The notes: generated from the letters alone by a model not told the origin. Positions 3,474 through 22,352 are shown, counted from the first letter of the stretch. The stretch is DNA of 34,484 nt from Acidobacteriota bacterium (GCA_003223775.1 QHWK01000167.1:1-34484), one strand, 5' to 3'. Numbers and translations: made by a program.

Positions 3474-3487
3474 CGGGCGGCCTCTCT

Positions 3488-3553: not shown

Positions 3554-3571
3554 AACATGAAATCCGAGATC

Positions 3572-4204: not shown

Positions 4205-4349
4205 ATCATGCGCCGAGGTATGGGCGCAATCAACTTTGAGAGCATGAGGTTCACGTTCGTGTCACCGGCGCGCGGGCGACGCCGACCGGGCTGTTGCCGA
4301 AGGTCCCGATCGGAGTTGAAACGCGTTGATGTCGAGCCACGTGTTGTGC

Positions 4350-5157: not shown

Positions 5158-5195
5158 CAGCCCTCGCTCGGTGACAAAAGCCTGTGAAGACATCC

Positions 5196-6911
5196 TTATT
5201 GGTACAGCGCGAACGAATACAGCGTGTCGCCGGCCGCCACGAGAATCTGCTGGCGCCCGTCGACCATGTAGGTCTCCGGCGCGTTGGTCACCTCGCCGAT
5301 CCGCGTATGCCAGAGCGGCTTGCCGTTCGCCGGGTCGAACGCAATGAAATTCCCGGACAGATCGCCGCCGAACAGCAGCTTGCCGGCGGTCGTCAGCAAC
5401 CCCGGCGCGCCGCCGCGGGTCCCCGGCGTACGGAACTTGTGCTTCCAGACGGTCGCGCCCGTCTGATAGTCGATGGCGCTGATGTAGTGGCCCATCGCCG
5501 CGACGGTGACTTCGTCCTTTCCACCGAGGCCCATCGCCCCGCGCGGATCGGTTTCGGTGAGGTAATACATGGCGTAGGTCTCCTCGGTCGGCACGTACAG
5601 CAGGCCGGTATCCGGGTTGTAGGCGGTCGGCGGCCAGTTCGTCGCGCCGCCGTTCGCGGACGAGACGAGCGAGCCGCCGACGTGATGATCCTTGGCGGGA
5701 TCGCGCACCGGCTGCCCTTTCGCGTTCAGCGACTTTGCCCAGTTCACGGTGTCGGAAAATGTGCTGGTCACCAGGTGCTCGCCAGTCCGTCGGTCGAGCG
5801 TGAAGTAGTAGCCGTTGCGGCTCGCCGTCAGCACCATCTTCCGCGGCCCGCCGCCGCGGAAGCCGCCGTCCACGAGCACCGGCGTCTGCGCGGAATCCCA
5901 GTCGTGCGTGTCGTGAGGCGAGGTCTGGTAGTACCACACCATCTTGCCGGTATCGACGTTCACCGCCACGATCGCGCAGGTGAAGAGATTGTCCAGCCCT
6001 TCGCCCCGCGGTTTCGACATGTAGGCGGGCGTCGGATTACCGGTGCCGAAAATGTAGAGATGGGACTCGGGGTCGTAGACGCCGGGCAGCCACGGGTGGC
6101 CGCCCCCGTGCCGGGCCGCGTCGAGGTCCTTCCACGTCTCCAGCCCCGCGTCGCCGGGGTTCATCGGCACGGTGGAGAAGCGCCACTGGTCCGCGCCCGT
6201 TTCCGGATCGAACGACATCAGGAACCCCGGCGCGTCGAGATCGTTCCCCGTGCCGACGATGATGTGATTGCCGACCGTCATCGGCGCCGACGTCATGAAG
6301 TACTGCTGGCTGAAGGGTACCGCCTCCTTGTGCCACCGCTCTCTGCCCGTCCGCGCGTCGAGCGACACGAAGTAATCGTCGGGTGTGACGAAGTACAGAT
6401 AGTTCCCCCACATCGCGACGCCGCGGTTCCCGATGTGCGTGCCCCCCCTTGTCTTCCAGAAGTAATGCCAGATCTCGCTGCCGTCGCGCGCGTCGACCGC
6501 CCAGACGTTGTCGGGCGTCGTCACGTAGAGCACGCCGTTCACCGACAGGATCGCGCCCTTGACCGTCGTCGCGCCGCCGCCGCCGACGTCGCCGGTGCCC
6601 TCGCCGCCGATAATGGTCGGCGGCGGTCCGCCGGGACCGGCTCGTCCGCCGTCAGGGCCGTTGGACAGTTTCGCCGCAAACGCGAGCGACAGCTGCCTCA
6701 CGTTCGACTGGTTGACTTGCGTCAGGGCGCTGAAGCGACGGCCCGTGTAGTCGCCGGAGTACGACGGCCACGAGTCGGCGAGCGGCTTCAGGAGATCCGC
6801 CGGATTGAGGCCCGTGGACGCTTGCCCGACGACGAGCGCCCCCATCACGAGGAACGCAGCGCCCGCAAAGGCTGCAAAAAGAAACACACTCTTCGTCCTG
6901 ATCATCGTCAT
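5196..6911 (-). CDS. PQQ-dependent (quinoprotein) dehydrogenase, beta-propeller, with signal peptide
   Basis: Track ORF 5196..7058. The likely start is MTMIRTKSVFLFAAFAGAAFLV at 6911. Propeller motifs recur: AVDARDGSEIWHY, SLDARTGRERWHK, SFDPETGADQWRF, AVNVDTGKMVWYYQTSPHDTHDWDS, AIDYQTGATVWKH, AFDPANGKPLWHT. Confidence 0.85.
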   Translation of the reverse strand: MTMIRTKSVFLFAAFAGAAFLVMGALVVGQASTGLNPADLLKPLADSWPSYSGDYTGRRFSALTQVNQSNVRQLSLAFAAKLSNGPDGGRAGPGGPPPTIIGGEGTGDVGGGGATTVKGAILSVNGVLYVTTPDNVWAVDARDGSEIWHYFWKTRGGTHIGNRGVAMWGNYLYFVTPDDYFVSLDARTGRERWHKEAVPFSQQYFMTSAPMTVGNHIIVGTGNDLDAPGFLMSFDPETGADQWRFSTVPMNPGDAGLETWKDLDAARHGGGHPWLPGVYDPESHLYIFGTGNPTPAYMSKPRGEGLDNLFTCAIVAVNVDTGKMVWYYQTSPHDTHDWDSAQTPVLVDGGFRGGGPRKMVLTASRNGYYFTLDRRTGEHLVTSTFSDTVNWAKSLNAKGQPVRDPAKDHHVGGSLVSSANGGATNWPPTAYNPDTGLLYVPTEETYAMYYLTETDPRGAMGLGGKDEVTVAAMGHYISAIDYQTGATVWKHKFRTPGTRGGAPGLLTTAGKLLFGGDLSGNFIAFDPANGKPLWHTRIGEVTNAPETYMVDGRQQILVAAGDTLYSFALYQ

Positions 6912-7000
6912 TTCACTGTCACCAGAAACGCGGTCACGTTGTGGATGTCCGCGTCGGCCATGTTCGCACCGATGGCGGAAACGCGCGGCGAACCAGACCG
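6908..7000 (-). pseudogene. possible C-terminal relic of a class I c-type cytochrome (no CxxCH left)
   Basis: The frame of track ORF 6908..7429 ends ...SGSPRVSAIGANMADADIHNVTAFLVTVK*. This resembles the C-terminal 'G..M(P)xF...L(S)DxDIxNVxAYL' end of class I cytochromes c. Its TGA overlaps the PQQ gene ATG (ATGA at 6908..6911). Only 193 nt separate the PQQ gene from the upstream gene, which is too short for a complete cytochrome. Confidence 0.3.
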
Positions 7001-7104
7001 TAGTACTGCTACGAGATTGAGCGCCATCGCCATCGCTCGACGTGTCCATAGCCCGCACGAACGCCTGATCTCGCCGGTCGAGCGAGCGGATGGCGCGGTA
7101 CTGG

Positions 7105-10100
7105 TCAGCGCATCACAATTGTCGAGTCGTTCTTCGACGCGCCCGGCGAGACGGTCAGGTACCGGTCGGCGCTGAGCACGATCTGATCGAGTGACACGCC
7201 GTCTTCCCGCACCTGCACGCGAATGGTCTGCGTGCCGGTCGACGCGAAGTAGATCGGAGCGGCGAGGCCGCCGTACGAGTTGTCCGCCCAGCCCCACTCC
7301 GAAAGGCCGGCGCCAGTCGCTTCCTCGATGCTGACGGGCGCAGCGGCCGTCGATCCGATCCGGTTGGTGGGAAGGCCACTGACGTCCACGGAGCCCGAGA
7401 ACTGCACGTAGACCGAGTCGTTGCTCCACAAGTTTCTGGCAGCCTTCCCGCGCATCCAGAGGTGGTAGCCGACGCCGGCTTCAGCCGCGAACTTCAACTC
7501 GAAGTAGTTCTGCGGCGAAGCCAGCGGCGCCGCGAGCTTCGCCGCTCCCGCATCCGGATTCGCCACGAGATGGCCGCCCGCAGCCGTCGGATCGGCGACC
7601 AGCGACCAGGTGCCCTTCACCGCCGCGTCCGCCGTGTAGAGCACCACAGTCCGGGATGTTCCGCCTGTTCGTTCGAGAATCGTCGTGTCGTTTCTGGCCG
7701 CGCCTGGCGCGGCGGCCAGGTATGTCGCGCCGCCGAGCACGATCTGGTCGATCGACAGGCCGTCTTCGCGCACCTGCACGCGGATCGTCTGCGTTCCGGT
7801 CGTCTCGAAGTAGATCGGGCCCGCAAACCCGCCGTAGGCGTCGTCCGCCCATCCCCACCCTGAGAGGCCGGCGTTGCTGGCCTCCTCGATAGAGAGCGTC
7901 GTGCTCATCGCTGAACCGATCCGATGGATCGGCGCGCCAGTCACGTCCACCGACCCGGAGAACTGCACGTAGACCGAATCGTTGCCCCAGTAGTTGTTTT
8001 CGGCCTTGCCGCGCATCCACAGGTGATACGGGATGCCGGCGTCTGCCCGGAAGGTCAGCTCGAAGTAGTTCGCCGGCGACGCGAGCGCCGCCGGAACCTT
8101 CGCCGCCGACGCGTTGGGATTCGCGATGCGGCGGCCGCCGGCGGCGGTCGAATCGTCCACGAGCGACCAGGTGCCTTTGATCACCGTGGCGTCAGCCGCG
8201 TAGAGAACCCGGTCGCGGCCAGGGGTCGATGCCGGCAATCGGATTTCAAGGCTGAACGTTTTATCTGCGGCATTGGTCGGATCGTTCGGATCGTCGGCGT
8301 GCACGGTGACGGATCCGGTCTCTACGGCCGTCGGCGTACCGAACAACGTCGCGCTCGATGGATCGAACAGAATGCCGGCATCTTTACTGTCGCCACCGGG
8401 TTGCCGCCGCGTAACGCGATGCCGGTCATCGCGGTGAGCGTGGCGATGTCGGCACCGAGATCGAGGCCGTCGGTCGACGGGTACTTGCTCGCGAACCCCG
8501 GCAGCAGACGATAGTCGCCACCGGCATGGTCGACGAAGCCGGCGAGCCATTCGACCACCGTCGGGAAATAGTCGCAAGCGGGATACTTCGATGCGACGCC
8601 GCCGGCGAGAATGTTCGCGCAGACGTAGCCGTCGGGCGCATACGTCACGATCGCCGGCAGTCCCGGCGAAGAGTTCGACCCGTTAATCCCGTACAAGCTG
8701 TGCGGCGACATGTTGTTCGCGTACACGAATGTCATCGTCGGCGCTCCGTAGAAGGCGACGATCGTCGAATCGGTCGTGAACACGGTGTTGTGATCGATCG
8801 TCACGGCCTCGGGACCGTCACCGACCTGAAACACCTTCCCGCCGGATCCCCAGGTGGCGCTGGTGAGGTCGTCGAAGAGGTTGTTCCGCACGACGATGTC
8901 GTTGGTGCGCAGGCTGGTTGCGACGTTGTCCGTGCCCAGGATGTTCACGCCGCCGGCCGTGTGGCGGACGATATTGTGCCGGAACGTGACGTGCTGCACG
9001 ACCACCCATGGCGCAGTGCCGCCCTGGTTGCGCGGCGTGAGAACAATCGGGTAGCCGGGCTGATCGGCCATCCAGAGGTTCTCGAATACGTTGCCTTCGA
9101 CCAGGACGTCCTGAGCGTTTTTGAGCTCGAAGATGTTCTTCACCTGCCACTTGGTGGCGGTCCCCGGCTTGCCGGCCGCGCCTGCTGCGCCGGTATCCGT
9201 GAAGAACGGGTTCGGCGTCGTCCAGAACATGGTCGGGCCATTCGACGTGCGGCCGTACACCACGTACTCCTGCGAGCCCGCCACGGGCGTCCACGAGATG
9301 GTCACGGCCCCGTCGGCGACGAGGGTCGCCGTCCCTACAGCCGACGCGACCGACGTCGCGGTGCGATCCTGGTTACTGAGCTTGCGTGCGGCCACCTGGT
9401 AGAAGTATGTGCCGGCGGGTAGTGCACCGGCCGACGGTGTCGCGGCCGCGGTGACGTTCGTCGGCGCCGCGACGATCGGGTCGCGCCACGCGAGCTGCTT
9501 GCTGAGATGGTTGGAGCGGAAGACGACGTGCGTCGTGACCAGGTTCGGAATCGGCGGATCGGAGCCGCCGAGCAGAAAGTTCTGCGTCGCGGCCTCCAGA
9601 AAATTGTTCTCGATCAGGTAGTTGCCCGGGCCGTTGAAGCCGCTGATGGCCTGCGACTCCTGGTTGATGGCCTTGCAGTCGGACACCCACGAGTTCATGA
9701 CGGTGGTGTCGCGGCTGTGCAGCGCGATGCCGCGCTTCTGTCCGAGCTCGGGGTCGCCGTGGACGTACAGGCGATCGAGAATGAAGCCGTACGGCACTTG
9801 TGAGAGCTGCGTCTGAGTCGAATCGCCGGCGCCGATGGAGATGATGTCGCCAGCGCCACTCTCGTTGGCCTGGAACTCCAGCAACATCAGCTTGTAATGG
9901 TTCGCACCGGCGGCCGTCTGCAGCGCGGCCAGGACATTCGGCGACCTGATCTTCGGGAGGCGCGCCGCGTAGGCGCGCGTGATGCGCACGCCGGCCGGCG
10001 GCAACACCGTGGCGGGCGCGGCCGATCGGATCGTGATGTAGTCGTTAACCGTGCCCTTGTTCGGCAGCACGAAGTTGCCGATGTAGGTGGCATTCGGTTC

Positions 10101-10250
10101 GAGCGTAATCACGTCACCAGGCTGCGCTTGATTGAGCGCGGCCTGGAAATCGCCGCCGGCCGGGACGACGATTGTTGCGGCTCGCGCCGGGGATGCGGCA
10201 AGGACGCAGACGCAGATCGCCGATAGCCACACGGATATCCAAAACCGCAT
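7105..10250 (-). pseudogene. secreted right-handed beta-helix protein (paralog A) with Fn3-like insert, one partial Ig-like module and two CBM-like beta-sandwich modules; one frame break
   Basis: Track ORF 8322..10250 starts with signal peptide MRFWISVWLSAICVCVLAASPARA, then ATIVVPAGGDFQAALNQAQPGDVITLEP... Sense is lost after ...TGIALRGGNPV at about 8394. It resumes in the frame of ORF 7105..8577 at QPGGDSKDAGILFDPSSATLFGTP... and runs to STIVMR*. By eye, roughly three quarters of the first ~620 residues are identical to 16320..19988. Confidence 0.75.
7108..8211 (-). repeat. tandem duplication of a ~180-aa CBM-like module inside paralog A (7108..7647 and 7648..8211)
   Basis: Both copies share VLY(A/T)ADA.V.KGTWSLV.D.TAAGG...NYFEL.F.A.AG..YHLWMRGKA.N.W.NDSVYVQFSGSVDV.G.P..RIGS...SIEEA..AGLS.WGWAD..YGG.A.PIYF...GTQTIRVQVREDG.S.DQIVL. 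The DNA also aligns clearly by eye. Confidence 0.85.
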
Positions 10251-10545
10251 GTGAATCCTCTGGAACGCTTTCAGTTGTCGAAGGCGAGTTCCCTGAGCAC
10301 GCGGAGCTGATTTACAGTCAGTTGTGGATCAGACGAACGCCGTCACGACGTCGGATCCAGCATCACCTGCTCTCGCCAGCAACCTTGCCCGCGCGTTCAC
10401 ACACGCCGCCCTCGGTGTTTCTGCGTGGCCGCCAGCGAAGTGCAGGAGCGTCGTGCCTCCGGCTCGTTACTCTCTCTTGTGTGTGGGCAACATACGCCCT
10501 CTGAGAGTCGGCTTCAAGGCCAAACGACGTATCGATGAGCCGTGA

Positions 10546-10605
10546 TCATGGCTCGATCTTCTGATTCACGCGGAAGAGATTCGCAGGATCGTAGGTCGCC
10601 TTCAC
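10546..10605 (-). pseudogene. 20-codon relic of the C-terminus of a BBE-type FAD-linked oxidase
   Basis: My translation reads VKATYDPANLFRVNQKIEP*, with the stop at 10546..10548. It matches the conserved terminal '(I/V)Kx.YDPxNxFxxNQNIxP' of berberine-bridge-enzyme-like oxidases. An in-frame TAG sits at 10615..10617, so only the tail survives. Confidence 0.4.
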
Positions 10606-10627
10606 TATCGTGTTCTAACGAGCAGGC

Positions 10628-11956
10628 TCAGAGGCGTACCAAGTCGCCGATCCGGATCGGACGCTTTTCTTCGATGCTCTTCCGCGCGGCGATGCCCACC
10701 AGGCATGACATGGCGCCGGCGCGCGAGTCGGGGATGCGCATGTACTCGGGCACCTCGATGGTGCCGAACATCAGATCGCGCAGCCGATCGTCGCCGCCGC
10801 CATGCTCGCCTTGGGCCTTCGGCACGTCGATGATGCGCCGCTGGCCGAAGGACGTGGTCAGGTGGATGTCCGCCTCGTCCTGAACCGCCCAGGGCTGCGC
10901 CTGGTAGTCGCGCACCTCGAGGCGTCCACGCTCGCCGTTGAACGCCACGCGATAGCCTTCAAAGGGCATGAAGGCATTGAGCGAGTACGTCATCGTGACG
11001 TCGTTGGAGTATTTCACCAGCGCCGTCATCGTGTCGTAGATGTCCACGTCTTCCCGGAAGACACACCCGTCGCGATGGTAGCCGTCGGTGTCCTCGCAGC
11101 CCGCATACAGCTTCATTCGCGTCGTGTCGGGCGTCATGTCGTAGAAGAAGCGGCACTGTGACGTGTGGGGACAGGCGCGGCAATGCGTCGAGCGGAACGC
11201 CCCGTTCCGGCCGTAGCAGCCCAGTCTGCCGTCGGCGACGACCGACACCGGGTCGGCGCCGAGCCACCAGTTGATGAGGTCGAAGTGGTGCGTCGCCTTG
11301 TGGACCCAGAGGCTGCCGCTGCGCGACTTGAGGCGGTGCCAGCGCCGGAAGTAGTCGGCGCCGTGAGAGACGTCGAGATACCAGTTGAAATCGACCGAAA
11401 TCACGCGGCCGATCTCGCCGCTGAGCAGCAGCTCCTTGATCTTCTGGTGCTTCGGCGGATAGCGCAGGTTGAACGTCACGACGATCTTGCGATGGTTCCG
11501 CTTTTCCGCGTCCAGCACCGACTGGCACTGCGTCTCGTCGATCACCATGGGCTTTTCGGTAATCACGTCGATGCCGCGATCGAGCGCGTTCACGATGTAG
11601 CCGCTGTGGAAGGCGTCGACGGTCGTGACGATGACCACGTCAGGCTTGACGCGGTCGCACATCTCGTCGAAGCTCGTGAACGTGGGGCAGTCGACGCCCA
11701 TGATCGCCTTGGCCGCGCCGACGCGCTTCGGATTGATGTCGCACAACCCCGCGAACTCGACGACATCGCCGTAGCGTTTCACGAGATCGCCGCCCCACAT
11801 GAAGCAGGCGCGCTCTCCGGTCCCGACGACCGCATACCGGCGCCGGACGGGAGCCGCCGGCGCCGCCGCGGCGCCGAGGGCGAAGAGCGGCGTGGCGGCG
11901 GCGATCTGTCCGGCCTGCTTCACGAACTCGCGACGCGTGATCGACTTTTCGCGCAT
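10628..11956 (-). CDS. Gfo/Idh/MocA-family oxidoreductase with twin-arginine leader
   Basis: Track ORF of 442 aa. Leader MREKSITRREFVKQAGQIAAATPLFALGAAAA, then YAVVGTGERA...DVVIVTTVDAFHSGYIVNALDRGIDVITEKPM (NAD-binding Rossmann fold with EKP motif). GGGAG lies 7 nt upstream of the ATG, and the gap to the upstream gene is 11 nt. Confidence 0.9.
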   Translation of the reverse strand: MREKSITRREFVKQAGQIAAATPLFALGAAAAPAAPVRRRYAVVGTGERACFMWGGDLVKRYGDVVEFAGLCDINPKRVGAAKAIMGVDCPTFTSFDEMCDRVKPDVVIVTTVDAFHSGYIVNALDRGIDVITEKPMVIDETQCQSVLDAEKRNHRKIVVTFNLRYPPKHQKIKELLLSGEIGRVISVDFNWYLDVSHGADYFRRWHRLKSRSGSLWVHKATHHFDLINWWLGADPVSVVADGRLGCYGRNGAFRSTHCRACPHTSQCRFFYDMTPDTTRMKLYAGCEDTDGYHRDGCVFREDVDIYDTMTALVKYSNDVTMTYSLNAFMPFEGYRVAFNGERGRLEVRDYQAQPWAVQDEADIHLTTSFGQRRIIDVPKAQGEHGGGDDRLRDLMFGTIEVPEYMRIPDSRAGAMSCLVGIAARKSIEEKRPIRIGDLVRL

Positions 11957-11967
11957 GAACCGGCTCC

Positions 11968-13767
11968 CTATGACCCGTCGCGTTTTTTCAGCAGCTGAAG
12001 AATCTGTTCCGGCGTCAGCTTCGCGGCCTGCGTGACGAGGCCCTCGATGGCGAACCGGTCGCCCGCGTTGTGGACGAGGAAACTGCCCTTCGCCATGGCC
12101 GCTGCGGTCCGCAAATCGCCCGCGCGGCGAAGGCCGGGAATGTAGAGGCGATCGAGAAACGCCTCATCGTTCGAGAGGTCGAAGCGCCCCACGTCGAGAA
12201 TGGCGCGGGTCACCGGCACGACGGCCGCGGCCAGCAGACCGGCGAGGGCCGCATCGCCGTCGGCCACGAGAATCGCGTTCGGCTGGTCGGACAGCGCGGT
12301 CACCAGATCGGCGACCCGCTGGCTCGCCGCGGTGCGGTTATAGGTGTCGAACATCGAAATGGCCGCCGCCGCGTCCGCGTCGAACGACGTGAAGCTGACG
12401 CGATGCACGGCGAGCCCCGCGCGTGCCACCGCCTTCTCGACCTCGGCGTCCTCGGTCGCCAGCACGATCACAGGCTTGGACGAGGTCCGCGCCGCGGCCG
12501 TCTGCTGCCGCTCGAAGCCCAACGCGTGCAGCAGCGCGCGGCGCGCCGCCTGCGCGTCCGCGCCGGCGAGCTGGCGCCTGGCTGCCGAAATCCAGTTCTC
12601 CGTCAACTCGGCGACACTCACCACGCCATCCGGACGCGGCCGGTTCGCGAACACCATCAGCTCCGGCAGTGGGTCGACACGGAACTCCTGCTCCGTCACC
12701 TTGACGTCCGCCCGCGCGCCCTTGAGCCAGCGGGCCATCCACGCGTACACCGCTTCACGGCTCTCGCGGTTGTAATTGTGATCGGCGTTCACGCGCACGG
12801 CGTGCACGCGGTCCCTCGCGCCGAAGAGATCGTAGAACCGCTGCATTTCCGGGTATTCGAGCTCCAGCGTCTCGTTGGTCCAATCACCGGTGGCCGAGAC
12901 CATCAGGAGCGGGCGCGGCGCGAACAGCGCCGAGATCTCGACGTTGTCGGTGTCGAGCCGGAGGCCGGGGAGGTTCTCGCACAGGCAGCCACCCTGCATG
13001 TGCAGCGAGATCATGTTCACCGGCGCGGACGCCGCGATGCGTGCGTCGACCGCCGCGAGCAGGAAGGTCTGCGTGCCGCCACCGGAAGCGCCCGTCGCGC
13101 CGATGCGATCGCGCGCGACCATCGGGAGCGTCTCGAGAAAATCGACCGAACGGATGCTGTTCCACAGTTGCAGGCCCGCGAGGTTCAGTCCCCACAGGTT
13201 CTCACGCCTGCCGCCGAACTCACGATCGTGATACGTGTGACTGGGAGTGTGCGGGTACCACCGGCTGTCGTTGTACCCGATCATGTCGTAGGTGAAGACG
13301 ACGAAGCCCTGGCGTGCGAGGTTGATCGCACGACCGGGGACCGACGCAACCGCGCTGTTCTCGAGCCGCCCGTAGTTCCAATGGCCATGGGCCGACACGA
13401 TGGCGGGGAACGGCCCGCTGCCGAGAGGCTTGTAGAGATTCCCCGTGACCAGGAACCCGGGAAGGCTTTCGAAGTACACCTTCGAGACCGTGTAGTCGTC
13501 GTGCGTCCGCTCGTCGAACACGACGGGCTTCAGCGGTGTGCGCTCCGGCATCGGGACCAGGCCGGCCGATGCGAGGATATGCTCGCGGAGCCACGCCGCG
13601 CGCGTCTGCCATTCCTCGAGCGACTTGGGATGGCGGACGACGAAGCGATCCTCGAGCGTACGGTAGCGGTGCGTCCGCGCCGCGGGAGGCTGCGGCCGCG
13701 AGGAAACTGACGCCGCGCCCAGCGACAGCACGAGCGTAAACGCGGCAAGCGGCCACAGTCGGCGCAT
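11968..13767 (-). CDS. alpha/beta hydrolase, acetyl-xylan-esterase / dienelactone-hydrolase-like, with ~200-aa C-terminal extension
   Basis: Track ORF 11968..13875. The likely start is MRRLWPLAAFTLVLSLGAASVS (signal peptide) at 13767. Contains PAIVSAHGHWNYG and the nucleophile-elbow-like IGATGASGGG, plus ...NADHNYN. Confidence 0.8.
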   Translation of the reverse strand: MRRLWPLAAFTLVLSLGAASVSSRPQPPAARTHRYRTLEDRFVVRHPKSLEEWQTRAAWLREHILASAGLVPMPERTPLKPVVFDERTHDDYTVSKVYFESLPGFLVTGNLYKPLGSGPFPAIVSAHGHWNYGRLENSAVASVPGRAINLARQGFVVFTYDMIGYNDSRWYPHTPSHTYHDREFGGRRENLWGLNLAGLQLWNSIRSVDFLETLPMVARDRIGATGASGGGTQTFLLAAVDARIAASAPVNMISLHMQGGCLCENLPGLRLDTDNVEISALFAPRPLLMVSATGDWTNETLELEYPEMQRFYDLFGARDRVHAVRVNADHNYNRESREAVYAWMARWLKGARADVKVTEQEFRVDPLPELMVFANRPRPDGVVSVAELTENWISAARRQLAGADAQAARRALLHALGFERQQTAAARTSSKPVIVLATEDAEVEKAVARAGLAVHRVSFTSFDADAAAAISMFDTYNRTAASQRVADLVTALSDQPNAILVADGDAALAGLLAAAVVPVTRAILDVGRFDLSNDEAFLDRLYIPGLRRAGDLRTAAAMAKGSFLVHNAGDRFAIEGLVTQAAKLTPEQILQLLKKRDGS

Positions 13768-13942
13768 CAGGGTACCTCGCGGATGTATGAGCGTGTCGCG
13801 AAGATATATCACGAACGAATACGCCGCTCGCAATCGTAGAGACGATACAGCTCGACCATAACCAAGTTTTTTCACAGGCTCTTCAGCCGAGACTCAGAGG
13901 CACGCAGCCGTCCTGCTGCGATCGCGGTTCGACGAGCGCAAG

Positions 13943-15571
13943 TCACATCGCCAGGAATATCGCAGTTGCGCCGACGAGGACGATCACTATGAGCCATGCG
14001 GCCGCGAACCCGCTGAGATCCGCGCGAAAGGCTGCCAGCCCACCGGCGCGCCGCGGGTGCAGCAGGTGGACCAGGAGCAGCGGACGTTGGACATCGTCAT
14101 CACTTGACGTCTCCAGCCGACCGAACAACGACGCCATCGCGTTGGCCGGCTCGGGGGCGGTCGCCAGACTGACGATCACCAGCGAAGCAATCCCGACGAG
14201 GAGGGCCGCGAGAAACACGTTGGGGTCCCAGTAATCGAGCCGCTGGCCCGTGAGACGGTAAAGCGCGAAGTTCGTCGTCAGCGCCCCGAGCAGGCTCGCG
14301 AGGGCTCCCCACCGGTTCGCGCGCCGCCAGACAACGCCGCCAACGACGCTGACGCCGACAAACGTGGCCAACGTTTCGGTCAGCAGGAACGTATACAGCA
14401 CGCGCTCGACCAGGAAGAGCGCATACACGACACCAATCATGGTCACGGCCAGGCCGCTGATCCGCCCGACCCATAAGTAATGATGGTCCGGCCGGTTCGG
14501 CACCAGCCGTCGTCGATAGAGTCCTTCGGTGAACAGCGCGCCGCTGTCGACCAGGAAGGCAGAGCACGTCGACATGTTCGCGGCCAGCACCGACGCGATC
14601 AGCAACCCGAGGGCTCCCGGAAACAGGAGCTGTCGACAGGCGAAGCCGAACGCATTCTCCGGGTCCTGGAGCATCGCCGTGTCGCCGTGGCCCTGCGCAA
14701 TCATCGCGCCCACGATCAAGCCGACGAGCGCCCACCCCACGGTGCAGATGCGCTTGACGAAGTTGCCGTACAACATGCCGACCCGGCACGTGCGCTCGTT
14801 GCGCCCCGTTCCCACCGCCGCGAGCTGCTGCGGCTGCGCCATGATGCCGACGAGACCGTTGACGGTCAACATGATGATCACCCACGGTCCGATCCCCGAG
14901 GGCGTCGCGAGCGAGAAGCGGAACGGCTCCAGCGATGCCTTCATCCCATCGAGCCCGCCGACCACGTTCCAGCCGAGCGGAACGAGCATGAACGAGAGGA
15001 CGATGATGAGCACGCCCTGAAAGAGATCGGTCCAGGCGGCGGCGATCAGTCCGCCCACGAAGCTGTAGAGCATGAACATCACCGTCATGGCGACGACGAT
15101 CTCGTCGACGCCGACGGTACCGCCGGTCGCCTGGCTGATCACCTTGCCGGCGCCTTTCAACATGCTGCTGGTGTTGATGACGAAGAAGCAGAGCGCAAAC
15201 ACGATGTAGATCGCGCCCATCCACGGCCCGTAGCGGTCTTCGGTGAACTCCGCCATCGTCGTCCGGCGGATCCGGCGGAAGACCGGCGCCATGATCCAGT
15301 AGAAGGGCGTGATGAACAGGTTTTTCCACTGGAACCAGATGGCGGAGGCGCCGGCGCTGTAGACCGCCCCGGCCAGCGCCACGGGCATCTCCGCGTGCGT
15401 GCCGACGCCAAAGCTCTGGGCGATCATCAACCACGGACCGAATCGCCGCCCACCGAGAAAGTACTCGCCGCTGTGGCGCACGCGAAAGCCGACGATGAGG
15501 CCGATCGCCGTGACGATGACGAGATACCCAATGAGGACGGCCCAGTCGAGCGCGGTGATGTCCATCCTCAC
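13943..15571 (-). CDS. sodium:solute symporter (SSF) family transporter
   Basis: Track ORF of 542 aa, multi-pass hydrophobic. The N-terminus MDITALDWAVLIGYLVIVTAIGLIVGFRVRHSGEYFLGGRRFGPWLM is typical of SSF proteins. The GTG at 15571 overlaps the nagA stop (GTGA). An ATG at 15565 with GGAG 5 nt upstream is an equally good start. Confidence 0.9.
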   Translation of the reverse strand: MRMDITALDWAVLIGYLVIVTAIGLIVGFRVRHSGEYFLGGRRFGPWLMIAQSFGVGTHAEMPVALAGAVYSAGASAIWFQWKNLFITPFYWIMAPVFRRIRRTTMAEFTEDRYGPWMGAIYIVFALCFFVINTSSMLKGAGKVISQATGGTVGVDEIVVAMTVMFMLYSFVGGLIAAAWTDLFQGVLIIVLSFMLVPLGWNVVGGLDGMKASLEPFRFSLATPSGIGPWVIIMLTVNGLVGIMAQPQQLAAVGTGRNERTCRVGMLYGNFVKRICTVGWALVGLIVGAMIAQGHGDTAMLQDPENAFGFACRQLLFPGALGLLIASVLAANMSTCSAFLVDSGALFTEGLYRRRLVPNRPDHHYLWVGRISGLAVTMIGVVYALFLVERVLYTFLLTETLATFVGVSVVGGVVWRRANRWGALASLLGALTTNFALYRLTGQRLDYWDPNVFLAALLVGIASLVIVSLATAPEPANAMASLFGRLETSSDDDVQRPLLLVHLLHPRRAGGLAAFRADLSGFAAAWLIVIVLVGATAIFLAM

Positions 15572-16297
15572 TCCATGACACGCCGAACGTGCAACGCTGC
15601 CGTGTCCGGATCCCAGTCTGCGGTCACCGTGCCGCCAGTCGCGAGCCCAAGGTAGTCTGCAGGGATCGTCGACGCCGACGCCATCTTCATCACTTCGTCG
15701 ATCGGCAGTCCCGTGAACCGCACCGTATTCGCGATCGCGCGATCCATCGTCAGGGCCGAGCCCGCCAGATACGGCGTTCCCGGCAGCGAGACGCGGCCGT
15801 CCGCCGAGAGCTCAGATCTGACGCCGCCAATCGTGTAGGTTCCCGGCGCGCATCCGGCGGCGGCAACCGCATCGGTGACGAGAATCGTACGGCGTTCGCC
15901 TTTCGCACGCACCATCGCTTTCACCGTTGCCGGCGGAAGATGATGTCCATCGACGATCAGGCTGGCGAAGACCGCGTCGGCGGCGAGCAGCTCCCAGATC
16001 ACATTCGGATGTCGCGGCTGCATCTGCGCACAGCCGTTCCCGAGATGGGTCGCGAGCGTCGCGCCGGCGGCGATCGCCTCCGCGATCTGTCCCGGCGCCG
16101 CCGCGGTATGCCCGATCGCGACTCGCACGCCGGATGCGACGAGATGTTCGATGAGCCCCACGGCGCCGTCGACTTCGGGTGCCAGCGTGACGAGCACGAT
16201 CCGGCCGCCCGCAGCATCCTGTCGACGATTGAAGTCGTCGATGCTCGCCGTCCTCACGTGAGGGAGGAGCGCTGGATCTGATTAACCTGCGCGCGCC
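15568..16297 (-). pseudogene. nagA: N-acetylglucosamine-6-phosphate deacetylase, 5'-truncated (C-terminal ~60% only)
   Basis: The track ORF (229 aa) starts at a GTG. It reads ...GGRIVLVTLAPEVDGAVGLIEHLVASGVRVAIGHTAA...ATHLGNGC...IVDGHHL...ILVTDAVAAAG...LAGSALTMDRAI..., which aligns with the latter part of NagA. In-frame homology continues upstream of the GTG (SARAG-TAA-SDPALLPHV) through a TAA at 16282..16284, then stops. The N-terminal metal-binding part is absent. Confidence 0.75.
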
Positions 16298-16319
16298 GAG
16301 TCGGCCGACGCGGCCGGCG

Positions 16320-19300
16320 TTACGGGCACAGGGCAAATCGCGACGGGTCGAATCCGTCGCTTCTTGCGTCCGGCTCCGTCCCGAGCCTCATGGTGCATCG
16401 TGAGCCGTCGCGCAGAACGAGCGTCGTGTCGTTCTTCAGCGCGCCAGGCGCGACAGTGAGAAACTGCTCCGCGCTCAGCACGATCTGATCGATCGAGAAG
16501 CCGTCCTCTTTCACCTGCACGCGAATGGTCTGCGCCCCTGACTGCTCGAAATGGATGTTCGGACCCATTACGTTCACGCCCCAGCCGTTGTCCTGCCAGC
16601 CCCAGCCCGATAGGTGGCAGCCGTTGCAGTCCGCCAGGTTCACGTCGGTCGCCGAGGTCGTGCCGATACGATAATTCGGTGTGCCGGCCTCATCGACGCT
16701 GCCTGAGAACTGCACCATCACGGCATCGTTCACGCGCTTGTTCCTGTCGGCCTTGCCGCGCAGCCACAGGTGATAGGCGACGCCCGCTTCCGCCTGAAAC
16801 GGAATCTCGAAGTAATTCGCCGGGTTCGCCAACGGTTGGTCAATCTTCCCTGCGCTCTTGTTGGGATTCCACATGCGTGAACCGCCGGCGGCCGTTGCAT
16901 CCGGCACGATCGACCAGGTGCCCTTGACCATGTTGGCATCCGACGCGTAGAGCACTACTTCACGTTCGCGGATCGTTAGACTGAACGTGCGCCTGGCCAC
17001 GTTCCCGTCCCACCCCACGTCGCTTGCCTGCACGGTGAATGAGAACGCGCCCACGGCCTTGGGTTTGCCGCTGATGATGCCGTCTGGCGACAACTCGAGG
17101 CCTTTCGGCAGCTGACCCTCGACGAGACTCCACGTGGTCTGGCCGGTGCCGCCGGCGAACTCCAGTACCGCCCGATACGGCCTCGGAGCATCTCCTGACG
17201 GCAGCGTTGCGGTCGTGATTGCGATCGGCAGCGGAGCAATGACGAGGGTCGCCGTCCCGGAATCTGTGTAGCCCGGCCAATCGTCTTTCACCTGAACGGT
17301 AAAAGTGAACCGTCCGATGCTCTGCGGATCGCCGGTCACCGATCCGGTGGTGCCGAGCACGAGGCCAGGCGGCAAGAGACCGCCGATGAGCGACCAGGTC
17401 TGCAAGCCGGTGCCCCCCGTGGCGCTCAGTGCCGCGTCATAATGCGAACCGAGAACGCCCGCGGGGAGCGCCGAAGTGACGATCCGGATCGGAAGGGGAG
17501 CGACAGTGATCGTCACCGTGTCCAAGACGACGCGATTGAGCCCCCAGCGATCCGAATCCTTCGCCTGGATCACGGCGGTCTTGGTTCCCCACATCGTCGG
17601 CGTGCCGGCGATTTCACCCGAAAGGGGGTCGAGGCTGAGCCCGTCCGGCAGATTGCCGGACGCGACGCTCCACGCGACGGTTCCGAGCGCTCCACTCACG
17701 CTCGGTGCGAGATGAAACGGCTCTCCGACCTTTCCCGCCGGTATTTCCGGAATGCTGATCGCGTACGGCGGGGGATCCACCATGATCTCCAGGGTGATCG
17801 TCGCCTCGTTGAAATCCCACGCCGTATCGTAGGCACGAAGGATCAGCAGGCCGACGGTGGGCGCTGCCGGCGTTCCGGTGATCAGGCCCGACGCCGCATC
17901 GAACGCGAGGCCGTCCGGCAACGAGCTGTCCAGCACTTGAATCGCGCATCCCGCCAGACCACCGCTGCACGTCACGCGTTGCTCGTACGGAACGTTGAAC
18001 ATGCCCTTTGGCACGGTCGGCGGTCCAATATGGACCGGCGGCATCCCGGGCCGCAGCCTGATGTCGCCGGAGAGCGCGAGCGTGGTTTCGGCAAGGACGA
18101 CGTCTACCTCAGCTCCAAGGTCCTTCCCCTCCGGGCCGATCACTTGATGATTCTCGACCAGCACGCCCGCGTTCTTGTACGTGCTGTTCGACCGCAGGTG
18201 ATAATTGCCCGCTGCGAAGCCCTCGAACTCGAGCTGCCAGTTGGCGACGGTCGGAAGGTAATTGTCAAAACTGCTGCACGGCAAGCCCAGATAGACCTTG
18301 GCATTCCCTCCCGCCAGAACGTTTCGGCAGAAGATCCCGTTCGGCAGCATGTAGGCATTGAACGCGCCTAATCCCGACGAGAAGCGATCGCCGAAGAACC
18401 CGAACGAGTTGTGCGCCGACAGGTTGTTCGTGATCGTGAGATTCGTGATCGGCGTGGTAATACCGGCCAGCCGCCCGTAGAGGTAGTAGATCGCGGGTTG
18501 AGTGCTGATGACCGTGTTGTGATCGATCGTCACGTTGTCAGCGCCGTCGCCAATCAGAAATACCCGGCTCGAGCCCCAGATGCTCGCGGTCAGATCGTCG
18601 AACACATTGTCGACAATGGTGATGTCTCTCGTGCGCTGGCTCGGCGCAAGGTTGTCGGTGCCGAGAATGTTCACGCCGCCGGAGGTATGGCGGACGATAT
18701 TGTGCCGGAACATGACGCGTTGGACGACCACCCAGGGCGCCGTGCCGTTCTGATTGCGCGGCGTGAACAGGATGGGATAGCCGGGCTGATCCGCCACCCA
18801 CACATGCTCGAACACGTTGCCCTCGACGAGCACGTCCTGGGCGTTTTTCAGCTCGAAGCTGTTCTTCACCATCCACTTGGTGCCGCTCCCCGGCTTGCCG
18901 GCCGCGGCTGCCGCGCCGGTATCCGTGAAGAACGGGTCCGGCGTCGTCCAGAACATCGCCTGGCTGTTCGACGTGCGGCCGTACACCAGGTACTCCTGCG
19001 CAGTCGCCACGGGCGTCCATGAGATGGTCACAGCGCCGTCAGCGCCGAGTGTCGCCGTCACTTCAGCCGATGCGACCGACGCCGCAATGTTGTTCCGGTA
19101 ACTGAGCTTGCGTGCGACCACTTTGTAGTAATAGGTGCCGGCGGGCAGTGCGCCGGCGGCCGGCGTCGCGGCCGCGGCGACGTTCGCCGGCGCCGCGAGG
19201 ATCGGATTGCGCCACGCGAGCTGCTTGCTGAGATAGTTGTAGCGGAAGACGACGTCCGTGGTGACCAGATCTTTAATCGGCGGGTCGGCGCCACCGAGCA

Positions 19301-19988
19301 GAAAGCTCTGCGTCGCGGCCTCGAGATAATTGTTCTCGATCACATAGTGGCCCGGGCCGTTGAAGCCGCCGATGGCCTGCGACTCCTGGCCGATGGCCTT
19401 GCAGTCGGACACCCACGAGTTGATGATCGTGGTGTCGCGGCTGTGCAGCGCGATGCCGCGCTTCTGTCCGAACTCGGGGTCGCCGTGGACGTACAGTCGA
19501 TCCAGGATGAAGGCGTACGGCACTTGCGTCAGCTCGGTCTGCGTCGAATCGTTGGCGCCGAGAGTGATGATGTCGTTGGCGCCGCCCACATTGGCCTGGA
19601 ACTCCAGGAACATCAGCTTGTAATGGTGCGCGCTGGTCGCTGTCTGCAGCGCCCACAGGGCATTCGGCGATTTGATCTTCGGGAGATGCGCTGCGTACGC
19701 GGGCGTCATGCGCACGCCAAAGGGCGGAAACACATCGTCGGGCGCGGCCGACCGGATGGTGATGTACTCCGGCGTGTCGCCGTTGTCCGGCAATGCTTTG
19801 TTCGGCAAGATGAAGTTGCCGGTGTACGTGGCGTCGGGCTCGAGCGTAATGACATCGCCCGGCTGCGCCGCGTTCAATGCGGCCTGAAGGTCCCCGCCCG
19901 ACGGAACGGCAATTGTTGCCGCGTGTGCCGCTGAGGCTGCGAGAAAGTACACCACACCCGTGGCCCACGAAGGGATCCGGAAACCCAT
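16320..19988 (-). CDS. secreted right-handed beta-helix protein (paralog B) with Fn3-like insert, four Ig-like (He_PIG-type) repeats and one CBM-like module
   Basis: Intact track ORF of 1222 aa. Signal peptide MGFRIPSWATGVVYFLAASAAHA, then ATIAVPSGGDLQAALNAAQPGDVITLEP. AGGAG lies 9 nt upstream of the ATG. The Fn3-like insert is at about 18873..19205, the Ig-like repeats at 16971..18026 and the CBM-like module at 16413..16961. Confidence 0.85.
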   Translation of the reverse strand: MGFRIPSWATGVVYFLAASAAHAATIAVPSGGDLQAALNAAQPGDVITLEPDATYTGNFILPNKALPDNGDTPEYITIRSAAPDDVFPPFGVRMTPAYAAHLPKIKSPNALWALQTATSAHHYKLMFLEFQANVGGANDIITLGANDSTQTELTQVPYAFILDRLYVHGDPEFGQKRGIALHSRDTTIINSWVSDCKAIGQESQAIGGFNGPGHYVIENNYLEAATQSFLLGGADPPIKDLVTTDVVFRYNYLSKQLAWRNPILAAPANVAAAATPAAGALPAGTYYYKVVARKLSYRNNIAASVASAEVTATLGADGAVTISWTPVATAQEYLVYGRTSNSQAMFWTTPDPFFTDTGAAAAAGKPGSGTKWMVKNSFELKNAQDVLVEGNVFEHVWVADQPGYPILFTPRNQNGTAPWVVVQRVMFRHNIVRHTSGGVNILGTDNLAPSQRTRDITIVDNVFDDLTASIWGSSRVFLIGDGADNVTIDHNTVISTQPAIYYLYGRLAGITTPITNLTITNNLSAHNSFGFFGDRFSSGLGAFNAYMLPNGIFCRNVLAGGNAKVYLGLPCSSFDNYLPTVANWQLEFEGFAAGNYHLRSNSTYKNAGVLVENHQVIGPEGKDLGAEVDVVLAETTLALSGDIRLRPGMPPVHIGPPTVPKGMFNVPYEQRVTCSGGLAGCAIQVLDSSLPDGLAFDAASGLITGTPAAPTVGLLILRAYDTAWDFNEATITLEIMVDPPPYAISIPEIPAGKVGEPFHLAPSVSGALGTVAWSVASGNLPDGLSLDPLSGEIAGTPTMWGTKTAVIQAKDSDRWGLNRVVLDTVTITVAPLPIRIVTSALPAGVLGSHYDAALSATGGTGLQTWSLIGGLLPPGLVLGTTGSVTGDPQSIGRFTFTVQVKDDWPGYTDSGTATLVIAPLPIAITTATLPSGDAPRPYRAVLEFAGGTGQTTWSLVEGQLPKGLELSPDGIISGKPKAVGAFSFTVQASDVGWDGNVARRTFSLTIREREVVLYASDANMVKGTWSIVPDATAAGGSRMWNPNKSAGKIDQPLANPANYFEIPFQAEAGVAYHLWLRGKADRNKRVNDAVMVQFSGSVDEAGTPNYRIGTTSATDVNLADCNGCHLSGWGWQDNGWGVNVMGPNIHFEQSGAQTIRVQVKEDGFSIDQIVLSAEQFLTVAPGALKNDTTLVLRDGSRCTMRLGTEPDARSDGFDPSRFALCP
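16971..18026 (-). repeat. four tandem ~85-aa Ig-like repeats within paralog B
   Basis: A signature recurs four times: LPDGLAFDAASGLITGTP, LPDGLSLDPLSGEIAGTP, LPPGLVLGTTGSVTGDP, LPKGLELSPDGIISGKP. Each is followed by a ...(F/A)xxxVxxxD strand, as in He_PIG / cadherin-like putative Ig domains. Confidence 0.7.
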
Positions 19989-20089
19989 ATCGTCTTACTC
20001 CTGCGGTGTTGGAAAGTTTTGCGCGAGCCGCGCGCGTCGCGCGGAGGATTCTAGCGCGCGCGACAGAAATCGCGGAGCATAAACGACAA

Positions 20090-21051
20090 TATTGCTCAGT
20101 ATGATATCGATGACGTGCCGATCGAATCGGGTGGGCGGTGGTCCACTTCAATTTCAGCGGCGGCGATTCGCGGCGAACAAGGTTTGGAGTTCTCGGCGCT
20201 TCGACCCGTGGACGGTCTTCCAGCGTCGCAGCAACAGCCAGCGTTTCCCGCGACCGTGCTCGCGCATGACCGCGCCCGCCCGAAAGAATTCTTGGCGGCG
20301 CACGTCGTCGAGCGCGGCGCTGGCGTGCTGCAGCACGTGGAATTTGTCGAAGACGATCTCGGCCTTCGATAGCACCGTGCCCACCGCATTGAGATACGGC
20401 CGATGCATGTCGGTGCACACGGCGGTGATCGCCCCGCGTTGCCGAGCGGTCAGGTCCTCCGTCAGCAACGCCGTGGCCGTGGCCTCGCTCCGGTCCTGGC
20501 GCAGGCCGATCACCTCGCCGTGCACGACATCGGACAGGACCGTCCAGAAGCGTTGGCCTTTGCCGCGTTGGATCTCATCGAGGCCGATATGCCGCGGCTG
20601 GCGCTTCACGCGCGTGCGATCCCACTCCGCCAGGAAGGCTTTCTCTGCGCGACGCGCTTTGCCCCAGCTGACGCCATGCCGGACGGCTGCGTGACTGGTC
20701 GGCATCGATTGACAGTCCACGCCGATCTGCTGTCGCAAGCGTCGAGTGACGCGCGCTTTGGCGTCGGCGAACTCGATGCGCTCGGTGCGAATCCCGCAGG
20801 CCCGACACACGAGGCGGCACTGCGGATAGATGAGCGTGACATGATGCGACGCCCACGGCAGGTCGTCCCACGTCCGCTCTCGGCTCGATCGCACGCGACC
20901 CGCGCGTCGACCACAGCCACTACAGGTGTCACCGGCGCACGCCGCGACGTTCAATCCGAATCGTCAGCCGGCTGTCTTCCGCCTCGTCCATCGTCACGAC
21001 CCGAAACCCCGACAAGCCCAGAATCCACGTACAATCGCGGCGCGATCCCAC
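20090..21051 (-). mobile_element. ISL3-family transposase remnant (1-nt frameshift plus large internal deletion); element ends not identified
   Basis: GTG at 21051, preceded by AAGGGAGGA, opens MGSRRDCTWILGLSGFRVVTMDEAEDSRLTIRIERRGVRR*, with TGA at 20929..20931. One extra base separates this from track ORF 20154..20954, which reads ...CSGCGRRAGRVRSSRERTWDDLPW...DEIQRGKGQRFWTVLSDV...TAVCTDMHRPYLNAV...KFHVLQHA...LFAANRRR*. At about 20157..20165 the sense jumps to LKLKWTTAHPIRSAR, the conserved extreme C-terminus of ISL3 transposases. Confidence 0.75.
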
Positions 21052-21342
21052 CGGTCCTCCCTTGTTGGTTGCACATCAAGAGAGAACACCATCCCATTCA
21101 GGATGGCCACGTGGTATCGCTCTTCTTCGTCCAGGCCGCCGAGCAGACCGCCCACCCCAAGTGCGGTCCGCGCAGGTGGCCGGGTAATTACCATTTTAGT
21201 GGACCAGACCGGCGCCAGTTGGAGCCTAAACATTGCTCTGGCTCAGACACGTGGTGTAGTGGGAGCCACTGCGTTGTACCAGCTCACCATTTTGAACGTG
21301 TGCGCCAGATTGCTGCGACAATCTACCGACCTGGTGCTTGAT

Positions 21343-22020: not shown

Positions 22021-22352
22021 AGACGCGCCTTGCGCATCGCGATCTGAGGGCAAGCCACACGTTACGTGTTGCTCCATCTCACGAATTTCGACGATGGACG
22101 CGACCTGATGAAAGAATCGCTGTACTCAAATCGGTGAACAGCCTCAAAAAAGCGCTGATCAAAGCTGTCCCGTTTCACTCACAACCGTCTTCACATTCCC
22201 GCGGCTGGAGAGATACGTGCGTTAGCGGCGGTCATCTCAGCCGTTCTATCGCGCGAATTTGCGCGGTTATCCCGTGCTGAGCTTGACGCGCTGAGTCATG
22301 TCATGTATCTGTTCCTTCCGTTCCCTCAACTTTCCACGGTCAGGAGCGTTTC

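Follow-up and report, generated by a model that had tools for sequence, protein, structure and literature searches.

We examined a 34,484-nt stretch of DNA from an Acidobacteriota bacterium (GCA_003223775.1, QHWK01000167.1:1-34484), hereafter the window, which carries on its minus strand two related genes for giant secreted beta-helix proteins. Gene B (16320..19988) is an intact open reading frame (ORF) of 1222 aa, and gene A (7105-10250), about 6 kb away, is present in two frames. Between them, on the same strand, lie a 5'-truncated nagA for N-acetylglucosamine (GlcNAc)-6-phosphate deacetylase (15568..16257), a sodium:solute symporter gene of the SSF family (13943..15571; Pfam SSF, E=7e-38; TIGR00813), a gene for a secreted alpha/beta-hydrolase esterase resembling AXE1 and glucuronoyl esterases (11968..13875; weak Pfam AXE1 and GCE_fung matches), which is also kept in the comparison contigs L001, L002, L088 and L103, and a Gfo/Idh/MocA oxidoreductase gene with a twin-arginine (TAT) signal (10628..11956; Pfam; NCBIfam models for inositol and glycoside 3-dehydrogenases match weakly). 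An initial annotation, made from the sequence alone, had described A and B as two paralogues bracketing a sugar-utilisation operon, and ORF calling, Pfam and NCBIfam searches and blastn bear this out.

Between B and a divergently oriented TonB-dependent receptor gene (22353..25604, plus strand; Pfam CarboxypepD_reg and OMP_b-brl_4) are the remnant of an ISL3-family transposase gene (20154..20954, minus strand; zinc ribbon, helix-turn-helix and partial DDE domains by Pfam) and an ICMT-like gene. Downstream of A follows a gene of the acido-empty-quinoprotein group A, a PQQ-dehydrogenase-like propeller (5196..6911, minus strand; TIGR04528, 712 bits against a cut-off of 650). The G+C content of the window is 65%, and those homologues that bear names come from Vicinamibacterales/Acidobacteriota. 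The closest public match is QHWB01000034.1 ('Acidobacteria bacterium gp6 AA54', a metagenome-assembled genome from grassland soil), which is 99.8% identical over window positions 16146-20113, where that contig stops. We take the region to be a locus for the utilisation of polysaccharides and amino sugars in a soil acidobacterium of subgroup 6 (Vicinamibacterales-like).

The beta-helix domain of B (residues ~24-641; 18066..19919, minus strand) is modelled by AlphaFold2 (AF2) with a predicted local distance difference test score (pLDDT) of 89.1 and was recognised by Foldseek; in the model it carries an Fn3-like beta-sandwich insert at residues ~262-369 (about 18882-19205). Four He_PIG (cadherin-like Ig) repeats follow at approximately 16971..18053 (Pfam PF05345, four stretches, 94.6 bits against a gathering threshold of 24 bits), and a C-terminal jelly-roll module resembling CBM6, CBM35 and the C-terminal domain of GH115 completes the protein (16410..16964; pLDDT 85.6; Foldseek). 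When B was compared with Protein Data Bank (PDB) sequences by phmmer, the match was confined to the He_PIG region and fell on an adhesin; there the profile matches the cadherin-like modules of the SraP adhesin. The orthologues P0001 and P0002 have a length identical to that of B.

Gene A, which the initial annotation took for one gene at 7105..10250, is not a single ORF in the window but is split over two frames by a 115-nt gap. Its 5' part (8380..10250, minus strand) encodes the signal peptide and beta-helix and is 65% identical to B over 641 aa by tblastn and 93% identical to the intact orthologue P0085; its 3' part (7105..8379, minus strand) lies in the other frame and matches the C-terminal module of B at 54-59% (tblastn). 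At the junction, 8379..8380, the 115 nt found in relatives are missing with 0 nt of microhomology, so that A is frameshifted: the 5' ORF (8322..10250) continues out of frame to a stop at 8322, and the ORF in the 3' frame spans 7105..8577. The 3' part holds a partial He_PIG repeat (8245-8379, weak match) followed by a tandem pair of CBM6/35-like modules (at about 7663-8220 and at 7108-7653, by tblastn to the B module), which form a 561-nt direct repeat with 76-78% identity and each align with the C-terminal module of B at 67-68% by blastn. A therefore counts two C-terminal modules and one He_PIG repeat, and B one C-terminal module and four He_PIG repeats. The intact orthologue P0085 scores 31.4 bits for He_PIG; the remnant in the window, in which the gap has removed the first half of the repeat, scores 20.8 and falls below the threshold of 24.

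The DNA of the two genes can still be aligned, as had been claimed: blastn matches 8782-10202 with 18511-19943 (1.42 kb) at 81.6% identity, and the roughly 100 nt from 9669 in A and 19395 in B, said to differ at a handful of positions, differ at four. The estimate of about three-quarters identity over some 620 residues stands for the first 480 residues (76%) and fails for residues 481-641 (37-45%), the identity over all 641 residues being 65-68%. Likewise, the 5' regions are unrelated, but the similarity does not stop right at the start codons; at the DNA level it fades within the first ~270 coding nt. Both proteins keep all 130 invariant beta-helix columns, and dN/dS values of 0.29-0.39 against orthologues indicate that A and B are both maintained under purifying selection. 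A-B DNA identity is the same within the genome (81.6%) as between genomes (81.6% and 81.8%), arguing that no homogenisation has occurred since the lineages split, and ongoing concerted evolution between A and B was rejected on these values.

The initial annotation had explained the pair by a beta-helix gene that spread within the locus through a duplicative, possibly insertion sequence (IS)-assisted event destroying resident genes. Copies made by a recent tandem or segmental duplication should be each other's closest relatives, and A and B are not. When 120 homologues were ranked over residues 1-641, B came 15th among the relatives of A and A 18th among those of B. Over residues 1-480, B is 87, 84, 80 and 80% identical to P0080, P0061, P0003 and P0005, and A is 93% identical to P0085 and 79, 78 and 78% identical to P0061, P0003 and P0005, compared with 76% between A and B. 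The two genes are thus no closer to each other than to homologues elsewhere over these residues, the outcome that the initial annotation had itself named as contradicting its proposal.

Different parts of A also have different relatives. In sliding windows, codons ~100-440 of A are closest to the group of B, while from codon ~450 on, including the C-terminal modules, A is closest to P0062, P0096, P0099 and P0110 and only 38-53% identical to the B group. The bootstrapped nearest neighbour lies in the B group in 100% of replicates for codons 100-440 and in 0% for codons 460-615. Judged from these sequence relationships, A is a recombinant or mosaic gene, B-like in codons ~100-440 alone and a member of another subfamily in all the remainder. 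Its mosaic make-up speaks against A being a copy of B.

Related loci place both genes in the region before it was damaged. In L001/L082 (JGI Ga0111539/Ga0111538; 88-95% nucleotide identity to the window) the order is B, nagB, nagA (324 aa), SSF symporter, esterase, Gfo/Idh/MocA gene and A (P0085, 1086 aa), with no gene broken. By the time nagA broke, both copies were thus already present, and their position beside an intact nagB-nagA pair contradicts an insertion that destroyed the residents. L003, L004 and L005 (99.7-99.8% identity), which are independent assemblies, share the nagB/nagA deletion junction of the window. L002, whose B orthologue is 96.7% identical at the nucleotide level, has a larger deletion running from just after B to the esterase gene; L103, whose B orthologue is P0080, has kept nagB, has lost nagA except for its last ~105 nt and has no A. 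In both L002 and L103 the segment corresponding to 20113-22246, with the ISL3 remnant and the ICMT-like gene, is replaced by a stretch of 58-61 nt, and B abuts the same TonB-dependent receptor gene as in the window. With nagB and nagA intact beside B in L001/L082, and no ISL3 remnant beside B in L002 or L103, the broken neighbours of B postdate its presence and are unrelated to it. B occupies the same place with and without the ISL3 remnant, which goes against an IS-assisted insertion of B.

The fragments on either side of B had been identified correctly. The nagA fragment downstream matches TIGR00221 over positions 149-363 of 380 (E=1e-41) with 143 bits against a cut-off of 225.65; its N-terminal third (~148 model positions) is missing, and what is left shares 91% identity with NagA of L001, which is intact. 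The window has nothing that corresponds to L001 positions 1165-2251, and the junction of this 1,086-nt deletion, which removed nagB and the first third of nagA, lies at 16260..16271. In the ISL3 remnant upstream, the DDE_Tnp_ISL3 domain is incomplete, covering positions 1-143 of 240.

The amino-sugar genes have been lost in three ways: nagB and the 5' part of nagA in the window clade (window 15568-16271), nagA in L103 (15857-16053), and nagB, nagA and the symporter gene in L002 (12665-12742). B itself is intact in the window clade and in L002, and is called as two ORFs in L103. The ISL3 region (window 20113-22246, L003 2458-2914, L005 9420-9876) is polymorphic. A segment of 676 nt (window 20434-21110; zinc ribbon, helix-turn-helix and start of the DDE domain) is absent from L003 and L005, and these two contigs keep 135 nt at the B-proximal end that the window lacks; of the 135 nt, the last 57 belong to the native upstream region of B and occur in L002 as well.

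Two shorter relics flank A, and both had been recognised. Upstream, between the stop of the Gfo/Idh/MocA gene and the upstream region of A, are the last 22 codons and the stop of a gene for a BBE-type FAD-linked oxidase (10546..10614, codons 10549-10614, minus strand; Pfam PF08031 positions 28-45 of 45, E=1.3e-5, with 25.5 bits where the cut-off is 20.6), encoding NTIVKATYDPANLFRVNQKIEP followed by the stop. No FAD_binding_4 domain accompanies this BBE match; upstream of it there is just the end of the Gfo/Idh/MocA gene. The tail is present in L083 and L085, its core 61 nt are absent from L082 and L001, and a search of all fetched loci found BBE-like tails only in contigs of the window strain.

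Downstream of A, the cytochrome c relic consists of the last 17 codons of the gene (6911..6961, minus strand), encoding MADADIHNVTAFLVTVK followed by a stop that overlaps the start of the quinoprotein gene. They match the C-terminus of the intact di-haem cytochrome c of L103 at 82%, this one comparison being the basis of the identification. Longer remnants of 43-89 codons are found in L084 and L086, and an intact cytochrome c gene directly precedes the orthologous quinoprotein gene in L105-L107. The cytochrome c of L103 carries two CxxCH motifs; there is none in any frame of window positions 4000-7300, and the relic peptides of the window and L086 have no Pfam match even at E<=10. By synteny, the notion that the flanking fragments were once genes in place holds at least for nagA and cytochrome c.

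Taken together, it is likely that A and B are not recent in-locus duplicates and that the broken genes beside them arose in separate, later events. In the order of events that we propose, the older layout would have comprised the TonB-dependent receptor gene divergent from B, then nagB, nagA, the Na+/solute symporter, esterase and Gfo/Idh/MocA genes and A, followed by a cytochrome c/quinoprotein operon. The 1,086-nt deletion would have taken out nagB and the 5' end of nagA, and an ISL3 element would have inserted between B and the receptor gene and later decayed. The cytochrome c gene downstream of A would have been truncated, and the 22-codon BBE-oxidase tail left at the junction of the Gfo/Idh/MocA gene and A.

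Several observations weigh against this account. The TonB-dependent receptor gene is 95% identical to that of L103 and 75% to that of L002, whereas B is 97% identical to its orthologue in L002 and 85% (5' part) to that in L103; such segment-by-segment identity between lineages points to recombination among related strains and makes the order of events less clear. The sequences used for comparison all come from metagenomes, as contigs whose assignment to genomes is uncertain. Finally, in L103 the Gfo/Idh/MocA gene is followed by 40 nt and then by the intact 296-aa di-haem cytochrome c gene, with no A, so it is not certain that A is ancestral in this slot.

The L103 arrangement leads to a different history for A, namely that the original layout was Gfo/Idh/MocA, cytochrome c and quinoprotein, and that a pre-formed mosaic A with the BBE-oxidase stub was imported by recombination, without duplication, into the space between the first two genes, where it replaced the 5' five-sixths of cytochrome c. 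The position of intact cytochrome c genes directly before the orthologous quinoprotein genes of L105-L107 agrees with such a layout, as do the truncation of cytochrome c to 17 codons in the window and at most 89 in L084/L086, and the foreign BBE tail stands exactly at the left junction, with its core 61 nt absent from L082. We regard this import as possible yet rather improbable, since L088, a more distant lineage (Gfo 88% identical in amino acids), has a P0006-type family member directly after its Gfo/Idh/MocA gene, in L091 an A-like gene precedes paralogues of the cytochrome c and quinoprotein genes, in this order, and L001/L082 share A at the same left junction. The L103 assembly, moreover, is rich in errors, splits genes and shows a nagA loss of its own; it may simply have lost A from an old beta-helix slot, in which case cytochrome c would have been truncated separately. 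No BBE oxidase gene lies upstream of the A-type relatives in L108/L109 or in the other fetched loci, and the gene contexts of P0091 and P0099, relatives of the 3' part of A, include neither a BBE oxidase gene nor nag genes. The L103 copy of the quinoprotein gene did not appear among the homologues listed, and the orthologous loci L105-L107 were used in its place.

In L088 (4493-8386) the slot downstream of the Gfo/Idh/MocA gene is filled by a P0006-type gene, in the window as in L082 by an A-type gene, and L103 (21213-21254) has no member of the beta-helix family there; cassette turnover at this slot is suggested. The initial idea of a gene arriving at the expense of residents may therefore survive in part, in that A may have entered the slot at the expense of cytochrome c, but not by duplication of B. 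Whichever way it happened, the event that concerns A is not a duplication of B.

The frameshift of A calls for a separate judgement. The missing 115 nt are present in L083, L085, L084, L086, L001 and L082; of these, L085 is 100% identical to the window over 1,172 nt next to the gap, and L083, 99.6-99.7% identical, carries an intact A ORF of 1086 aa at 5175..8435. A look-up of the exact product of the frameshifted 642-aa ORF returned nothing, and the allele was found in no other assembly. Three further gaps are private to the window: 119 nt at 4538/4539, which frameshifts a TAT sugar-phosphate isomerase-like gene, 135 nt at 20113/20114, upstream of B, and 99 nt at 22671/22672, in frame in the TonB-dependent receptor gene. 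Each of the four gaps (99-135 nt) is filled in every other assembly compared, and none shows microhomology at its junction. As four such gaps within 34 kb contrast with a base divergence of only 0-0.4% from the closest contigs, they are probably artefacts of the kind left by collapsed assembly gaps, and the frameshift of A is most likely an assembly artefact. Long-read indel noise was rejected as the cause of the frameshift, because the gap is a clean 115 nt without homopolymer error.

If the four gaps were instead biological, A would be a true pseudogene of this strain in a locus undergoing ongoing decay. Decay of this kind is real in the relatives, as the three different losses of nagB/nagA attest, and a 7-nt tandem duplication frameshifts a GMC oxidoreductase gene of the window itself. 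The number and size of the gaps, their lack of microhomology, their filling in all other assemblies and the freedom of the remainder of A from further lesions (next to the gap, no difference from L085) nevertheless make us hold a pseudogene to be rather unlikely, and we read the frameshift as an artefact. The duplication in the GMC oxidoreductase gene (1649-3473, minus strand) is of GCGCGGT at ~2271 and splits the gene into N- and C-terminal ORFs; L083 lacks it and has a single ORF of 605 aa. Two further small differences from L083 are the loss of 1 nt at window position 633 and a duplication of 4 nt at 7082.

As to how A acquired its B-type segment, one candidate route is gene conversion within the locus: A would once have belonged to the other subfamily, and B, 6 kb away in direct orientation, would have overwritten codons ~100-440. 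The tract has sharp edges, with DNA identity of 78-93% from coding nt ~270 to ~1350 and 60-66% or less outside, the two genes are close together in the same orientation, and the dS of the tract (0.33) is only modestly above the divergence of B orthologues (0.23). Conversion by B is all the same unlikely. Other proteins of the B group, P0039 (85%), P0003 (83%) and P0061 (82%), are nearer to the tract than the neighbouring B (80%), so that B is not the closest donor candidate, and P0003 sits in a different locus. Any conversion must also predate the split from the L001/L082 lineage, since identity within the genome does not exceed that between genomes. A resembles the mosaic paralogues that recombination or gene conversion produces in multigene families in having a sharply bounded tract with different relatives; unlike in such families, the donor is not identifiable as the neighbouring paralogue and there is no sign of ongoing homogenisation.

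The original proposal, that the beta-helix gene copied itself within the locus with the help of an IS and broke nagA, cytochrome c, the BBE-oxidase gene and the other flanking genes, could draw on the ISL3 remnant immediately upstream of B, on gene fragments at all four flanks and on the tract of 1.42 kb shared by A and B, but is very improbable given the intact nagB-nagA neighbours in L001/L082, the unchanged position of B without ISL3 in L002 and L103, the closer homologues of each gene elsewhere, the 3' two-thirds of A that derive from another subfamily and the failure to find, around A, any flanking repeats that would mark a mobile element. A and B are better described as two old members of a family. 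The case carries a caution: fragments beside paralogues looked like the scars of duplicative insertion, and the relatives reveal that the deletions happened independently, that the IS insertion had nothing to do with the paralogues and that the short gaps probably come from the assembly.

Elsewhere in the window, genes for the GMC oxidoreductase, a gluconate-2-dehydrogenase subunit-3-like protein, a TAT xylose-isomerase-like TIM-barrel protein and the acido-empty-quinoprotein group A protein cluster at 1649-7058 (minus strand), a set reminiscent of oxidative (3-keto) glycoside-cleavage gene sets. In relatives, genes for a di-haem cytochrome c and a quinohaemoprotein precede the orthologous acido-empty-quinoprotein gene. 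A second TonB-dependent-receptor-like gene (31565-34353, minus strand) is split into an ORF of 271 aa and one of 803 aa, which overlap and lie in different frames. At 29696-30697 (minus strand), an ORF with an integrase core (rve_3) and an HTH_32 domain is the second mobile-element-related gene of the window, and L002 has a 95-aa rve_3 gene at the corresponding place.

The family to which A and B belong as two old members is very large and uncharacterised. Its proteins are secreted and modular, and those encoded by A and B are built from a signal peptide, a right-handed beta-helix of ~620 residues with an Fn3-like insert, one to four He_PIG repeats and one or two CBM6/35-like modules. The initial annotation had noted a beta-helix core with an embedded insert, and the AF2 model of B residues 1-641 (pLDDT 89) agrees, predicting a right-handed beta-helix into which a beta-sandwich of ~100 aa is inserted at ~262-369. 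Relatives of the beta-helix domain form 2,628 clusters (50% identity) at E<=1e-30; many members lack the insert and match as two stretches, 20-261 and 370-641. The invariant polar residues concentrate in strands 163-259 and 379-465 and are kept by both A and B. In Foldseek searches the beta-helix matched, at the level of the fold, PL6 lyases, GH110 enzymes, tailspikes, C5-epimerases and GH28/87 enzymes, with PL6 structures on top (E=3e-6 to 6e-4; TM-scores of 0.3-0.53), which supports the right-handed beta-helix fold. In the PL31 alginate lyase 6kfn, the N-terminal cap is matched by the family profile over residues 26-79 (E=1.4e-9), and BcAlyPL6 gives a weak match (E=0.038).

The family fits no curated model. 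No Pfam or NCBIfam lyase family was matched at E<=0.01, and the match to PDB sequences is limited to the N-terminal cap, so that membership of PL6 finds no sequence support. Both proteins stay under the Pfam Beta_helix (PF13229) threshold of 25.9 bits (B 20.3, A 24.5), NCBIfam assigns neither to a family, and neither the beta-helix nor the C-terminal module is covered by any model in Pfam or NCBIfam. For the C-terminal module, Foldseek returned 2wz8 (CBM35), 2w1w, 2cdp (CBM6), 5fui and the GH115 structure 4zmh with probability 1.0 and target-normalised TM-scores of 0.58-0.74; the predicted fold is the CBM6/CBM35 beta-jelly-roll. A search for Pfam CBM_6 and CBM35 found no match, just weak GH115_C similarity (18-20 bits against 24.1).

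Like the PL6 enzymes (chondroitinase B, AlyGC, BcAlyPL6) and PL31 of Paenibacillus sp. FPU-7 (6kfn), A and B are secreted modular proteins with a single-chain right-handed parallel beta-helix. Their helix is longer, however, and carries the Fn3-like insert; the E-x-E...K...R arrangement of PL6 is not obvious by eye in the invariant block E218-N219-N220...E223...R249...K255, and the neighbouring genes in the window suggest amino sugars rather than uronates. GH110 alpha-1,3-galactosidases, GH87, GH28, phage tailspike depolymerases and mannuronan C5-epimerases belong to the same fold class with comparable Foldseek scores but have no relationship at the sequence level, and the scores do not separate hydrolase, lyase and epimerase. 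The C-terminal module of ~190 residues is predicted to be the same beta-jelly-roll as in CBM6/CBM35 and the GH115 C-terminal domain, but is ~60 residues larger than canonical CBM6/35 and falls below every Pfam threshold. The locus as a whole resembles the SusC/SusD-type polysaccharide utilisation loci of Bacteroidota in that a TonB-dependent transporter of the outer membrane lies next to genes for secreted proteins active on glycans, for an esterase, for a transporter of the inner membrane and for sugar catabolism in the cytoplasm. Unlike them, it has no SusD-like partner, its receptor is of the acidobacterial CarboxypepD_reg/OMP_b-brl_4 type, and no hybrid two-component or extracytoplasmic-function (ECF) regulator was seen in the window.

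The initial description of the paralogues as 'secreted polysaccharide-binding/cleaving-like' is supported by the A-B alignment and by the Foldseek results for the beta-helix and the C-terminal module. While synteny, phylogenetic placement, mosaicism and folds come from the comparisons above, we infer catalytic activity and substrate: A and B are probably secreted glycan depolymerases that may act on amino-sugar polymers. This role is drawn from the gene context in the window, from the CE4 deacetylase and sugar transporter genes adjoining P0061 and from the TonB-dependent receptor gene adjoining P0003. Against it stand the lyase and hydrolase matches, which with TM-scores of 0.3-0.45 and ~10% identity are at the fold level only, and the unrelated gene contexts of some family members. 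In such a system, the CBM-like modules would tether the secreted protein to its polymer and the beta-helix would cleave it; the fragments would enter through the TonB-dependent receptor, be trimmed by the esterase and the oxidoreductase, be taken up by the symporter and be catabolised by NagA and NagB, where their genes are still present.

The net picture is of an ordinary decaying utilisation locus with two old paralogues of a CAZyme-like family, one of them mosaic. More tentatively, the beta-helix module, with its optional Fn3-like insert, could be an undescribed glycan-cleaving family of soil Acidobacteriota that acts on amino-sugar polymers such as microbial exopolysaccharide or cell wall and diversifies by exchange of segments and cassettes between paralogues at conserved slots. 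The operon context, with nagA/nagB, the esterase, the TAT oxidoreductase and the TonB-dependent receptor, suggests substrates to test. If the functional assignment is true, the more than 2,600 clusters would represent a large reservoir of glycan-active enzymes, secreted and as yet unannotated, in the abundant Acidobacteriota of soil, with relevance to the turnover of microbial necromass and exopolysaccharide.

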